A DNA stretch of 64,000 bases from an uncultured Phycisphaerales bacterium (GTDB taxonomy: Bacteria; Planctomycetota; Phycisphaerae; Tepidisphaerales; Tepidisphaeraceae): NCBI GenBank assembly GCA_963758525.1, contig CAVWVQ010000004.1:109993-173992 (forward strand), read 5' to 3'. The notes below the pieces were generated by a model. That model worked only from the letters and a program-made list of their open reading frames with translations, searched no databases and was not told the DNA's origin. The translations under genes and the position numbers were made by a program. Position 1 is the stretch's first letter, and every line of letters starts with the position of its first letter. Shown piece after piece: positions 10,402 through 61,958 of the stretch.

Positions 10402-10503
10402 GCCGGGACGCGCAGCGGAGCGCGTCGGACGGCGCTGTTTTTCATAGGACCGCTCGCCCTTCCACGGGCTCCGTGCGCGTTCCGCTGCGCATCGCGGCTA
10501 ACC
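10402..10503. repeat. REP-like doublet, family E (GTTAGCCGCGACGCGCAGCGGAGCG), overlapping the fadJ 3' end
   Basis: GCCGGGACGCGCAGCGGAGCGCG ... CGCGTTCCGCTGCGCATCGCGGCTAACC. Cleaner copy at 21631-21715. Confidence 0.8.
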
Positions 10504-12928
10504 TTGGGTTCGATATCGTGTTCCCGCTTGACGGACCTGCCGACAGCGGCTGATTTCGCGTGGCGCACTCCCGCAACAGCGCTGCTGGCGCAAATCGGGA
10601 TCCGAACTGTTTCTCCAGTGCTTCGAGTTTCTCGATCACCAGAGGGAGGCCCACCGCGTTGGCAAATTGAATCAACCCGCCACGGAACGGGGCGAGCCCG
10701 AGGCCCAGGACCGTTGCGAGGTCGATCGTCTCGGTGGAATCCGTGACATTTTCCTGCAGGACGCGAGCAGCTTCGTTGACCATCGGAAGCACCAGCCGCC
10801 AGGCGATCGCTTCATTCTCCTGCCTGTGGCTGGTGGCGGTGTCAGGACGCTGAACCGAAGCTGGTTCTTGAGTAATTTGCGAGTTCTGCAATCCCTCGGG
10901 AAAGCCGCCGCGCCGGCCCTCCCCCAGAGTACTACTGGGACATTCCATCTGAATTTGCGGGTCGGTCTCCTGTAGGGCGGGATTCATCCCGCCGTGGCCT
11001 GTGGTCTTACAAAAGGCGCGGCGGGATAAATCCCGCCCTACGTTGTCCACCCGCATTTTCGACGGGAATGAACCGCTAGGGGAGGGGGAAGCCGGGGGTT
11101 GACCATCCGGCGGGGCGCTGGCCATCAGCGCCTGCTGAAGTTCCGCGTTGACTGTCAGCGGGTGCCCATGCGCGTGTTTTGCATCGTGCTCGTAAAATCC
11201 GCGGCCGGCTTTGTCGCCGAGCCAGCGGCGTTCGAGTGCCAGTTGAAGGGCAGGTGGCATTGGCGGCGGGTTGCGCAAGACGCTCCCAAGGGTTGCCAGC
11301 ACGTGAGCCGCGACGTCGAGTCCGATCGTGTCGAGCAATTCGAAAGGCCCCATCGGCATGCCCCACTGCTTGAGCGCGGCGTCGATTCGATCGATGGGAA
11401 CGCCTTCGCCTGCGACGGCCAGCGCCTCGGCGAGATAGGGGATCAGCACGCGATTGACGAGAAATCCGGGCGCATCCCGCACCAACACGGGCGTTTTACC
11501 CAACCGGCCCGCCAGCGTGGCGGCCGTCGCCAGCGGCTCTTCCCGGCTCTGGACGGTTCGCACGACTTCGACGAGCGGCATCTTCGCGACTGGATTGAAA
11601 AAATGCAGACCGATCACGCGCTCCGGGTGCGCGGTGCTGCTGGCTATCTCCGTCACGCTCAGCGAACTGGTGTTGGTCGCGAGCACGGCGTCGGGCCGGG
11701 TCAGACGATCCAGCTTCGCGAAGACTTCCTTCTTGGCTGGCATCTCTTCGAGGACGGCTTCGATGACCACATCCGCCAGGTGCAGTCCCGTCCAGTCGGT
11801 GCACGGCGCGACGCGGTTCATGGCGTTGCGTGCCGCCACGCGATCGAGCCGGCCGGCGGAGACATCATCGTCGAGCAGGCGTTTCACCCGCGCCAGACCC
11901 GCCGATGCGGCTTTGGCGTTCACTTCAACCAGCCGAACGTCGATCCCGGCACGCGCCAGCGCATGCACGATTCCCGCGCCCATCGTTCCGCCGCCAATCA
12001 CGGCCGCCCGCTTCACCTCCGCCGGCCTGGCTCGCAATTGATCGGCGATCAGCCGCTTGGCGCCTTGTTTGAGGAAAAAGAGGCGAATCAGGTTTTGGCA
12101 GGTGTCAGTCTGCATTAGGTCAATTACCGCGGCGCGCTCCGCGTCGAAGCCGGCCATTTCTCCGTCGCGACAGGCGATTTGCACGACGTCGATCAGCCGC
12201 ATGGGAGCGGGATAATGCCCCAGCGTCGTCGCGAGCGTTTCCCTGCGAGCGCGAGCCAAAATCTTGTTGCGAACGAACGGCATGCGCGCCGCGGTGTGAT
12301 CCATCAGCGACAGACGCCGGTTGGGCCGCTCGCCCATCACGCGCCGCTTCGCCGCCGCGAGCAGTGCTTCGGGACGAACCACTTCGTCGACAATTCCCGC
12401 GCGCAGCGCCTTCTTCGGCGGCATGGTCTTGCCGGCGAGCAGCAACGGCAGAGCGCGCGTCAGTCCGATCAGGCGCGGCAAGCGCACCGTTCCGCCCCAG
12501 CCCGGCAGAATCCCGAGCTTCACTTCCGGCAAACCGATAGCGATCGAGGTATCCGCCGCCGCGATGCGCATGCTGCACGCCAGCGACAGTTCCAGCCCAC
12601 CTCCCAGGCAATCTCCGTTGATTGCCGCGACCGTGGGCATCGGCAGATTCGCAATCCGCGAGAAGAGCGACTGCCCCTCGGCCAGAAACTGGGCCATCTG
12701 CTCTCGATCCATCTTGCGGATCTCAAACAGATCGGCGCCGGCGATGAACGAGCGATTTTTCCCGGAGGCAAAGATCAACCCATGCGGCCCATCGCGCTCG
12801 ACCTGGTCGAGGGCGACATTCAATTCCGCCATCACGCGAGGAGACAGCGTGTTGACGCCTTTGGCCGGTACGTCAATCCAGATCGTTGTGATCCAGTCGG
12901 AGTCAGTTGTCATGCGGAGCGTTTCCAT
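10442..12928 (-). CDS. fadJ: Multifunctional enoyl-CoA hydratase / 3-hydroxyacyl-CoA dehydrogenase (FadJ/FadB type) with in-frame repeat insertion
   Basis: FIAGADL, CLGGGLE, GLPEVKLGILPGWGG, VIGGGTMGAGI, TNTSSL, GLHFFNPV, PGFLVNR, PMGPFELLD, GLGLAPFRGG. Confidence 0.93.
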   Translation of the reverse strand: METLRMTTDSDWITTIWIDVPAKGVNTLSPRVMAELNVALDQVERDGPHGLIFASGKNRSFIAGADLFEIRKMDREQMAQFLAEGQSLFSRIANLPMPTVAAINGDCLGGGLELSLACSMRIAAADTSIAIGLPEVKLGILPGWGGTVRLPRLIGLTRALPLLLAGKTMPPKKALRAGIVDEVVRPEALLAAAKRRVMGERPNRRLSLMDHTAARMPFVRNKILARARRETLATTLGHYPAPMRLIDVVQIACRDGEMAGFDAERAAVIDLMQTDTCQNLIRLFFLKQGAKRLIADQLRARPAEVKRAAVIGGGTMGAGIVHALARAGIDVRLVEVNAKAASAGLARVKRLLDDDVSAGRLDRVAARNAMNRVAPCTDWTGLHLADVVIEAVLEEMPAKKEVFAKLDRLTRPDAVLATNTSSLSVTEIASSTAHPERVIGLHFFNPVAKMPLVEVVRTVQSREEPLATAATLAGRLGKTPVLVRDAPGFLVNRVLIPYLAEALAVAGEGVPIDRIDAALKQWGMPMGPFELLDTIGLDVAAHVLATLGSVLRNPPPMPPALQLALERRWLGDKAGRGFYEHDAKHAHGHPLTVNAELQQALMASAPPDGQPPASPSPSGSFPSKMRVDNVGRDLSRRAFCKTTGHGGMNPALQETDPQIQMECPSSTLGEGRRGGFPEGLQNSQITQEPASVQRPDTATSHRQENEAIAWRLVLPMVNEAARVLQENVTDSTETIDLATVLGLGLAPFRGGLIQFANAVGLPLVIEKLEALEKQFGSRFAPAALLRECATRNQPLSAGPSSGNTISNPRLAAMRSGTRTEPVEGRAVL
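10935..11078. mobile_element. MITE-like element, family Y, carrying a family A REP doublet and inserted into a family B hairpin inside fadJ
   Basis: Closely similar to 57798-57930. CTA duplicated at 10932-34 and 11076-78. Removing the 144 nt restores CCCTCCCCCAGAGTACTAGGGGAGGGGG. Confidence 0.85.
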
Positions 12929-14300: not shown

Positions 14301-14347
14301 CCACCCTCACCCCGACCCTCTCCCGGAGTACCAGGAGAGGGGGCAGG
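14301..14347. repeat. REP-like hairpin, family B (CCCTCACCCCGACCCTCTCCCGGAGTACCAGGAGAGGG)
   Basis: Similar copy at 19604-19647; interrupted copy in fadJ. Confidence 0.85.
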
Positions 14348-18063: not shown

Positions 18064-19852
18064 TTGGCATCCTTTGCTGTTAGCGCGTAGAGATGAGTGA
18101 GCGTTCCGACGTAGAGCGTCTGGTTGGCCGCCACCGGCGTGGAGTCGATCGCATCCTTGAAATCGAGCGAGGCGAGAATCTTTTTTTCCCTGCCGGCCGC
18201 AAGGATCGTGAGCAGTCCGTTTTCATTGCCGGCGTAGACTTTGCCGTCGGCGACGAGCGCACTGCCCCAGACGTGTGCTTCGGTGTCCTGAGCCCAGATT
18301 TCGTTTCCGGTCTGCACATCGAGGCAGTGAATCACTCCCGCGAAATCGGGGAGATAGAGAAGTCCGTCGAGAATTGAGGCGCTGGAGAGGGTTCGGCCGA
18401 TCTTCTCGTTGCGCCAGAGGATTCCTGTCGTGGAGATGTCGCCTGCCTTGGCCGCGTCGATGCAGTTCAAACAGCCGGCGCCATCGCCCTGCTCGGGCTC
18501 CTGCCCCACGGCGGCATAGACGCGCCCGTCGAGAATCACCGGCGTCGCGATCACCTCGCACGGACCGTTTGGCTGTCCATACGGAATCGGCTTGCCGTCC
18601 TTGGTTTCATGGTCCGGCGGATTGCAATTGCACCGCCACAACTCGGTGAGCGTGGCGACGCCGTCGTCTCCGATCGGGCCGGGCGCGGCATCAAACCCGT
18701 AGCAGAATCCATCGCCGCCGCCGAAGACGACGATCGGCCTTCCGTTCACCATGCCGCTGGCGGGTGACGACCAGTTGCAATAAAACGTTCGCGCGCTGAT
18801 GCCGGAACGCTCTTGAGCGAGAAGCTTGCCGGTATTCTTATCGAGGCAGATCAGCGCCGGCGCGCGGGCGCGGGAAGATGCTTTCCGTTCCAGTCGACGC
18901 CGTTGGATGTTGTGACGAAGAGCCTGTCGCCGACGATCAGGACGGAGCTGCTGGTCATGTTGTGGGGGAAAACGCCCAGCTCATCGCGCATGTCGAATCG
19001 CCAGACGATGTCCGCGTCGGATGGTCCCTGGGGGATCGGCGGTTTGCCGGGGCCGGCGGTGTAGTGGGCTTCATCCAGAAACGGACCTTGATTGCTTCCC
19101 GTGAATCCCGCGGTCGTCAGGCAGATCACCTCGCAACGGTTGGTGACGGCATAGATGCGATTGCCTTCCACGGTTGGCGAGGAACAGAATCCGACTTCGT
19201 CCCAGTCGCTGACTTTTCCCGCGCGGAGTTTCGGGACGGCAAGCTGCCAGTCAAGCTGCCCGGTCTTCTCGTCGAGGCAAAGAAGGATGCCGTAATCACC
19301 GGCGTATTTTGAGACGCGGGGACTGGAATTGTTCGTGCCGAGAAAGAGACGACCGTCGGCGACGGTGACATTGCCATAGGATTGCGAGCCGAGTTGCGCT
19401 GTCCAGAGCACGTTGCGGCCGGAAGCGGGATCGGCATCGCTGACCAAGCCGGTTTCGTGAGGTGCGACCATGTTGCGAGAGGCATCGTGGCCGTATTGCG
19501 GCCAATCGTCGGCGAGGGCTTGCGTCGTCAATATCAAAATGAGCAGGGAGCACGCCAAGCGGTGCCAATTGGCGGATCTGCCATCGCCCGCTAGTCGGAC
19601 GAACCCCCACCCCAACCCTCCCCCGGAGTACCAGGGGAGGGGGCAGGCGGGGATCTTGCCGTCAATGAAATTGACCCCGCCGCGTGGCACGGGCATCCTG
19701 CCCGTGCGGGTTGCAGGGGACAGAGAAGAAACTCTGTTAGCAGCGGTCTTTGTCTGTTCCGCGACGCCAACACGGGCGGGACGCCCGTGCCACGGGGAAG
19801 CGTGCGGATCGCCGAAGATTCTGGCACCGCCCGCGCGGAAATTGAGGTTCAT
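18060..19852 (-). CDS. PQQ-like (BamB-type) beta-propeller repeat protein (frameshift near 18865)
   Basis: DWPQYGHDASRNM, NVLWTAQLGSQSYG, repeated CLD-xTG-W units. A shifted frame continues APALICLDKNTGKLL into the 18060-18752 ORF. Confidence 0.88.
19604..19647. repeat. REP family B hairpin
   Basis: CCCCCACCCCAACCCTCCCCCGGAGTACCAGGGGAGGGGGCAGG. Confidence 0.85.
19684..19793. repeat. REP family C doublet
   Basis: GTGGCACGGGCATCCTGCCCGTG ... CACGGGCGGGACGCCCGTGCCAC. Confidence 0.88.
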
Positions 19853-57788: not shown

Positions 57789-58051
57789 CCAGTGGTGCAT
57801 TCGATCTGAATTTGCGGGTCGGTCTCGTGTAGGGCGGGATTCATCCCGCCGCGGCCTCTGGTCATGCAGAAGGCGCGGCGGGATGAATCCCGCCCTACGC
57901 TGTCCAACCGCCTTTTCAACGGGAATGAACACCAGTCTCCCGTAGGGCGGGATTCATCCCGCCGTGGCCTGTGGTCATGCAGAAGACGCGGCGGGATGAA
58001 TCCCGCCCTACGCTGTCCAACCGCCTTTTCAACGGGAATGAGCCCCAGTAG
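57789..58051. mobile_element. Family Y MITE-like element with tandemly duplicated family A REP unit
   Basis: Two units offset by 113 nt (doublets at 57829-57898 and 57942-58011), each followed by GCTGTCCAACCGCCTTTTCAACGGGAATGA. Confidence 0.82.
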
Positions 58052-61090: not shown

Positions 61091-61121
61091 GTCTCCCAAA
61101 GCCGACTGTTCGGAGCAGTAT

Positions 61122-61346
61122 GAAGTCAGAAGTAAGGAGCCAGAAGTAAGAAGTCAGAAGCAAGAAGTCAGAAGCAAGAAGTCAGTTAGAGCATATTAAG
61201 ATGTGGACTGGAAGAAAAGTCCGGAGCCGCCGACAGTGGCTTTGGTCTTCCGGCTCCTTACTTCTGGCTCCTTACTTCTGACTTCTTACTTCTGACTTCC
61301 CGCTTCTGACTTCTCGCTTCTGACTTCCCGCTTCTGACTTCTTGCT
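61122..61346. repeat. Inverted heptamer tandem arrays (GAAGTCA/GAAGYAA ... CTTCTGA/CTTCYYR)
   Basis: Left arm ~61122-61185, right arm ~61247-61346, with alternating 7-mers. Confidence 0.9.
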
Positions 61347-61958
61347 ACTACTCCCGATAACAATCTCCCCTTCCTCCGCTTCGTGCCGCAGCAACGTCCC
61401 GGCGCGCCGGGATGCCTTCGTGCCTCGTCTCTCCCTCCCCTTCGTGCCTTTCCCGTCCCCATGCGACATCGCGCGACAGATTTTGCAGCGCCGCATGTCG
61501 CATCCGCCGCGCAACCTCTCGCTGCGCCGCGGGATACGCCCCAGCCTGGCGCGACACCGCGCGCAACAGTTCGCGCCGCACCCTGAAAACGAGTCATGCC
61601 CGCACGCTCGCCATGTACGATTCACCGGCTTCGCCGGCCTCCAGCCGTGCCGACAGCTTCCAGATTCTTCAATGGTTTGATTCATGCCCTGAACGTACGC
61701 AATCCCCCTCTGCGATGCGACATTTACTGCCCGGCCCGATTTTTATCAGAATGACCCGCTCCGAGCTTTACCCGTAAAGTGCCACGAATTGGCACGAATT
61801 GGCACATTTTCTAAAGCGATGTCAACCGCTCGTCTCTGTCGCGCACCGTCCCGTCTCTCGTACTGCCGCCCTGGTAGCTCGTGATTAAAGGTCCGGCGAC
61901 AAGTCGCTCGGCTCCGCGCTGGCGCGACTCGCCTGCCCCCCCCAAAGACAGCAGTTAG

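Follow-up and report, generated by a model that had tools for sequence, protein, structure and literature searches.

A BoxC-like repeat and a REP-loaded IS630-family MITE nested in frame in a FadJ/FadB-type gene of a Phycisphaerales bacterium

In a 64,000-nt stretch of DNA from an uncultured Phycisphaerales bacterium of the Tepidisphaeraceae (the window, whose positions are used below), a gene for the alpha subunit of a fatty acid oxidation complex carries three kinds of repeat, nested one within another and read in frame. Judged from the sequence, the nest was probably built by two insertions, a BoxC-like repeat (family B) and then an IS630-family MITE (family C) already loaded with a REP-like doublet (family A), and the resulting loop is likely tolerated by the enzyme without benefit. 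An initial annotation had seen here serial mobile elements building new peptide in a tolerant loop of a core metabolic enzyme. Insertion in frame in the manner of Rickettsia palindromic elements (RPEs), into a tolerant loop, agrees with orthologs that lack the insert and with predicted disorder, whereas the number of events, the word core and a gain of function were not supported.

The host gene and the anatomy of the nest

The 828-aa product combines enoyl-CoA hydratase and 3-hydroxyacyl-CoA dehydrogenase domains (Pfam ECH_1, 3HCDH_N and two 3HCDH), its catalytic motifs are intact and its top PDB match is 8bnu. Both NCBIfam equivalog models score below their cut-offs (FadJ, 615.8 against 869; FadB, 537.8 against 968), so the gene is named FadJ/FadB-type by its domain order and is not strict FadJ. 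It is flanked by a thiolase and an acyl-CoA dehydrogenase, an operon order kept in close relatives. By their names, its homologs point to Tepidisphaeraceae. The enzyme had been called core, but only 8 of the 40 relatives searched gave a full-length ortholog, which means that its gene does not belong to the core of the family. In P0005, a close FadJ homolog, a B element was seen in the C-terminal tail. The features are as follows.

10442..12928, minus strand: FadJ/FadB-type fatty acid oxidation complex alpha subunit, 828 aa (Pfam, NCBIfam, PDB match, motifs)
10467..10508, no strand: further repeat family over the last codons of the gene, outside the nest (126 blastn hits for 10430-10560)
10830..10885, minus strand: about 19 further extra loop codons, limits approximate (loop length excess)
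10886..10934, no strand: family B repeat, first part, with decayed third block, left hairpin half and target TA at 10933-10934 (profile match)
10933..10962, plus strand: terminal inverted repeat of C, left end, including the target TA (match to IS630 ends)
10935..11076, no strand: family C, IS630-family MITE of 142 nt; the duplicated TA comes after it at 11077-11078 (ends match IS630)
10972..11041, no strand: family A GTAG-tagged REP-like inverted doublet, MITE cargo, at 10972-10993 (plus) and 11020-11041 (minus)
11049..11078, minus strand: terminal inverted repeat of C, right end, including the duplicated TA and the sole CTAG of the coding sequence (11076)
11079..11090, no strand: family B repeat, right hairpin half (26/28 to the free core at the junction)
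19603..19647, plus strand: free intergenic family B arm (another arm at 14303-14347)
57792..58048, plus strand: sister copy of MITE C between genes, partly duplicated in tandem (repeat search)

Most of the anatomy first described was recovered: the insert at 10935-11078 is 144 nt long, in frame and stop-free inside the gene, it contains the family A doublet and it matches the intergenic stretch 57798-57930 at 121 of 133 positions. Its removal restores a B core identical at 26 of 28 positions to the free copy at 19616, and a B-doublet profile matches the insert-free junction with E 1e-9 (nhmmer). The peptide quoted for the nest corresponds to residues 614-671 of the 828-aa ORF, between two 3HCDH stretches. 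Duplication at the ends of the insert, given at first as CTA, is present, but the best reading is TA within a CTAG target: base 11076, a C, is the last of the element itself, and the left-end base at 10935 is a private change. The extra codons at 10830-10885, in which blastn gave no repeat match, are possibly the spacer of a B doublet whose second arm was lost.

Three repeat families and a rare target site

Family B counts 281 arms genome-wide, including 60 inverted pairs, and is present in 41 of 61 genomes of the family. The published BoxC/TM(ECO) consensus finds 0 matches with a first loop of 3-6 nt and 75 with a loop of 8, so B is filed as a BoxC-like variant. According to the gene calls of this analysis, at least one of which is false (a DUF559 fragment), 35 of the 281 arms are located 40 codons or more within a predicted gene, about 25 genes being concerned, and an NCBIfam scan of 20 proteins from selected loci gave the names IleRS, ValRS, TsaD, DusB, pyruvate kinase, TreY, HypF and HsdM. 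The B insertion was lineage-specific in all six genes tested against orthologs (IleRS, ValRS, TsaD, DusB, TreY and FadJ). A 35-aa insert in IleRS is missing from 29/29 orthologs, that of DusB from 5/5, that of TreY from 3/3 and that of TsaD from 3/5, where G046 carries a B doublet of its own and the same loop of G015 holds another insert; among four ValRS relatives, one of a divergent type has no insert and three have shorter, different ones. At one further IleRS loop, B is common to G065 and G069.

The frame that gives the peptide PSPGxPGEG is used by 24 of the 35 arms and by the first arm in 19 of the 25 genes, where open frames alone would give a fraction of 0.335 (p 1.7e-5, binomial), and the FadJ nest is read in it as well. 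This Pro/Ser/Gly bias suggests that selection acts on the translated peptides of B inserts, or it could instead reflect a codon-phased target preference. The FadJ loop of P0006 reads SSGTPGEG in the same register, in which P0007 has a related hairpin; B in the loop may be of shared or of independent origin in this protein and these two, both being compatible with the tree.

Other repeats were met along the way. Inverted B arms flank a frameshifted DUF559 (Vsr-like) gene of the host genome, G000 (contig C3:1210797-1211270, L050), and 9 of 12 full-length but 0 of 6 partial DUF559 matches in five genomes chosen as B-rich (L243-L258), and B doublets look like the unit of such a cassette minus its gene. 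DUF559 has been grouped with the Vsr nucleases (PMC3424549). In-frame tandem 8-mer arrays encoding ERHGGTEARRH and EGTKGQRD peptides are found in ValRS (C2:366884-368392) and many other predicted genes of G000, several other palindrome families are also in frame in predicted genes of this genome, and the window has two inverted arrays of a 7-nt unit at 61114-61356. The genes for ValRS (L033, C2 near 366900) and SMC (C2:363913) are each split by a frameshift, probably through long-read indel errors.

Family C occurs at about 15 loci of the genome, including 8 long copies (140-146 nt); its terminal inverted repeats are imperfect, and it is classed as a MITE on its dispersed short copies without transposase. 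The genic copy is 79-86% identical to the seven other long copies. A search for the parent IS, made with a short end pattern across 401 genomes of the class, led to a complete 1237-nt IS630 with HTH_32 and DDE_3 ORFs in another Phycisphaerae genome (G244), one end of which agrees with an intergenic C copy at 25/30 nt and with the genic copy at 23/30, the other end being also alike, and to IS ends at contig edges of G402 (25/30 and 24/30, respectively). All of these matching ends are seated in CTAG. Four of the 16 non-self loci of the end pattern were dropped as chance, as they had no matching second end or IS context. An exact 20-nt search of the C end in GTDB genome contigs gave no match, and in 60 family genomes the query used did not find C ends. 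Among 9 DDE_3 matches in the host genome, which is 91% complete, none has the end motif of C at its terminus, and the ends of the 7 that were read all differ from those of C. We infer that C is mobilised in trans by an IS630 transposase.

IS630 elements duplicate TA, typically within CTAG, so C is best read as 142 nt plus TA, or 48 codons. A single TA, in CTAG, stands at the insert-free junction, and the filled site is bordered by TA on either side, a state kept in only 3 of the 8 long C copies. Five long copies measure 144 with one TA, and from the sequence alone the duplication may be of 4 nt instead. The frame used in FadJ is open in the genic copy and in 5 of the 7 other long copies, and the genic copy is open in two of its six frames, so that retention of the frame was no great luck. 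Five of 14 other C loci lie within 71 nt of B, compared with 13 of 149 A doublets within 60 nt, a weak excess given thresholds that differ and sets that overlap. Tandem amplifications of parts of the MITE were observed in the host genome at C4:5781-6250 and C3:3564110-3564617, one of them joined to a B doublet via a short shared word.

With its GTAG tag, short palindrome, high copy number and inverted dimers (358 units and 149 inverted doublets genome-wide), family A belongs with the REP/REPIN sequences. Only 3 of the 358 units are found 40 codons or more within a predicted gene. Many doublets are carried inside MITE shells, and 17 have a C-type end. No RAYT partner was recognized, as A flanks 0 of 23 Y1_Tnp matches in its own genome and, in four relatives with A, 0 of 26. 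The 23 include a multi-copy Y1 element whose limits are terminal inverted repeats of its own (TIRtron-like) and not REPs, and several Y1 genes of this genome are flanked by other palindrome families. The other long C loci aligned all have A at the same place (16 rows, two of them both orientations of one locus), and searches of C ends found no empty shell. Since the long C copies aligned all carry the doublet, A is read as having arrived as cargo. In G176 (L205, L209, L212) and G383 (L203), the same IS630-type ends enclose different, locally abundant hairpins, and it would seem that IS630 shells capture each host's own repeat in these two other Phycisphaerae families.

A second, very young MITE with the same A doublet was noticed in the host genome (143 nt, ends GGGTGT/ACACCC, e.g. 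C1:270746). It has 66 copies, 45 of which are identical and 50 of which show perfect 8- or 9-nt duplications; one copy sits within a B hairpin, and an autonomous partner was not found. At 143 + 8/9 nt it shifts the frame, so it cannot stay in a gene in frame, and the finding that 0/66 copies lie within a predicted ORF is true by construction.

No 4-mer is rarer in the genome than CTAG (1255 sites, O/E 0.35). The gene's coding sequence has exactly one, at the junction, and those of 8/8 orthologs have none, so an earlier B insertion is taken to have supplied the gene's only preferred target. Free B variants with a CTAG centre exist and are rare (C3:1827587 and C3:3478975; one of 281 arms by the strict pattern, the second found otherwise). 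As the B hairpin is split, B would have come before C, and the scarcity of CTAG may have driven the choice of site. In the proposed route, a BoxC-like B would have entered, in frame, a variable loop that separates the two C-terminal dehydrogenase domains, and an IS630-family MITE with the REP doublet aboard would then have jumped into the single CTAG of B. Duplication of TA would have brought the addition to 142+2 nt, or 48 codons, with the frame kept, and the outcome would be a loop predicted to be disordered and tolerated by the enzyme without benefit.

The loop in orthologs and alternative explanations

As had been expected, orthologs lack the insert (8/8 genomic orthologs, one of them the unpublished G004, on which the outcome does not hinge). 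The loop, measurable in 112 of 120 database homologs including this protein, has 130 aa here, compared with a median of 39 and a maximum of 52 in the 111 others and with 43 aa, without insert, in the four closest homologs (80-84% identity). About 87 loop residues are thus extra, 39 of them beyond the MITE (48 from the MITE, about 20 matching the B profile and about 19 remaining). The anticipated disorder was also returned by AlphaFold with a 120-sequence alignment, in which pLDDT falls below 50 only at 624-691 and in the tail, with a mean of 86.8 and an enzyme that is intact around the loop (single-sequence pLDDT, 39.7). Low confidence is expected for any unaligned insert, so this is disorder as predicted and not as shown. 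With respect to the nearest relative with DNA compared, dN is 0.104 and dS 0.978, values that average a long branch and are blind to very recent relaxation. Relative-rate tests gave excess change in this copy in 0/12 cases and in the sister in 3, and at 262 conserved columns 4 deviations were counted here, compared with a median of 7. The nine private changes of the genic C copy (3 synonymous, 6 non-synonymous) are as expected without selection, which speaks against new peptide as a gain of function; translation of the insert and its neutrality are both probable. As RNA, the insert is predicted to form a single long stem that places its two ends near each other, and Rfam returned only microRNA-precursor hairpin matches, all below gathering scores.

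A gene under recently relaxed selection, or a dying one, would also gather insertions, and the patchy occurrence of its ortholog, the repeat over its last codons and an mRNA that would hold a hairpin of -111.8 kcal/mol could be understood in this way. This is unlikely, however, for a gene with an open frame, intact motifs, a conserved operon order and no rate excess, and inserts of the same kind are borne by IleRS, ValRS and TsaD. Recruitment of the peptide as an interaction or phosphorylation tag, or of the hairpin for RNase III control of the operon mRNA, is a little less likely again: it would fit the folding z-score of -7.4, the B-type peptide of P0006 and the related hairpin of P0007 in the same loop and register, and the occurrence of B in TsaD and IleRS loops of different genera, but the private changes look neutral, the four closest homologs do without the insert, and permissive loops alone would give such recurrence.

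Three independent insertions at the site (B, an empty MITE shell and then A), close to the serial events first proposed, would suit layers of distinct element types and the shells of G176 and G383 with their different hairpins; the presence of A at the same place in the aligned long C loci and the lack of an empty shell in the end searches make them very improbable. Equally improbable is a peptide that is never made, because the hairpin is cut out of the RNA or the ribosome jumps over it. The long stem and the nearness of its ends would allow it, but an insert that is in frame and stop-free needs no removal, and the frame bias of B suggests that selection acts on peptides. Least probable of all is a long-read assembly artefact. 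Frameshifts do occur elsewhere in the assembly, as in ValRS and SMC, and none of the short-read contigs formally bridges a junction: a 162-nt contig from the short-read run X1, which may be the source sample, covers 10921-11082, including B flank bases, with 2 differences and 0 gaps (160/162), and a second covers 10773-10930, neither extending 31 nt to each side of a junction. The run gave no joint that skips the insert, the genic copy differs by at least 14% from the seven other long copies, and the junctions obey IS630 rules. Two insertions, B and then C with A aboard, are the reading preferred here.

Known repeat systems and what the nest means

In-frame repeats in conserved proteins are established, as RPEs and as MITE fusions (PMC10969869, PMC2229807, PMC3184786). 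RPEs are described as palindromic repeats of about 100-150 nt that occur between genes and in frame in conserved genes (PMC10969869, PMC2229807), and a guanylate kinase with an RPE is reported to remain active (PMC2229807). The B/C nest resembles them in being palindromic, in having intergenic and in-frame copies and in finding no counterpart in orthologs (6/6 genes). It differs in nesting three repeat classes that are unrelated to one another, of which the inner has an IS630 parent family, in a planctomycete host; the likeness drawn here is one of behaviour, and RPE models in NCBIfam were not among the families listed for the 21 proteins scanned (E 1e-8). GTAG/CGTC REPs have been recorded inside ORFs, including tRNA synthetases, with Opitutus terrae and Rhodopirellula baltica as PVC members concerned, and GTAG dimers within long palindromes are also on record (PMC3733652). 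In contrast, family A is itself rare in genes and entered this one as MITE cargo, and the enclosing palindrome here consists of IS630 ends.

TA is the IS630 target, and the pneumococcal RUP is described as a short element with terminal inverted repeats shared with IS630, a TA target and stops in all six frames (PMC2229807). C is likewise short, with IS630-type terminal inverted repeats and a TA target, but at 142+2 nt it has two open frames and a REP doublet aboard. BoxC, also named PIT or TM(ECO), denotes intrastrand triplex repeats, of which the E. coli copies are given as always intergenic (PMC4666352). B has the same three G/C blocks and a 3-nt second loop, whereas its first loop is of 8 nt and not of 3-6, about 25 genes carry it, and its FadJ copy no longer has the third block. 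That IS elements target REP sequences is established (PMC1525189, PMC3184786), and here too a repeat is the landing site of a transposable element, but the target lies within coding sequence and the incoming C keeps the frame. A literature search, with most subscription papers outside its scope, brought up nothing on nested in-frame MITE-in-repeat structures or intragenic BoxC-like repeats, and, within the same scope, accounts of DUF559 with repeats or of Tepidisphaeraceae repeats contained no description of the FadJ case. What is new is the layered, repeat-in-repeat route into a protein, in-frame RPEs and intragenic REPs being already known.

A wider reading is tentative and rather less likely than not to be right as a whole. 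BoxC-like repeats of Tepidisphaeraceae, as gene-less derivatives of DUF559 nuclease cassettes, would form a protein-writing system that returns repeatedly to the same loops of essential enzymes, is filtered for the floppy frame rich in Pro/Ser/Gly and imports rare CTAG targets for IS630 MITEs loaded with REP hairpins of the host itself, a ratchet by which loops grow and are trimmed. The interest of the FadJ nest is evolutionary, and moderate, as it shows no new function. With it, behaviour like that of RPEs reaches BoxC-like repeats of Phycisphaerae, and, together with the other genes, it maps permissive loops in IleRS, ValRS, TsaD, DusB, TreY and FadJ. Element length decides who stays, as a 144-nt MITE keeps the frame and its sister of 143 + 8/9 nt cannot. 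Altogether, the nest offers a traceable route from non-coding repeats to protein, in which one repeat would supply the transposon target that the gene otherwise lacks.
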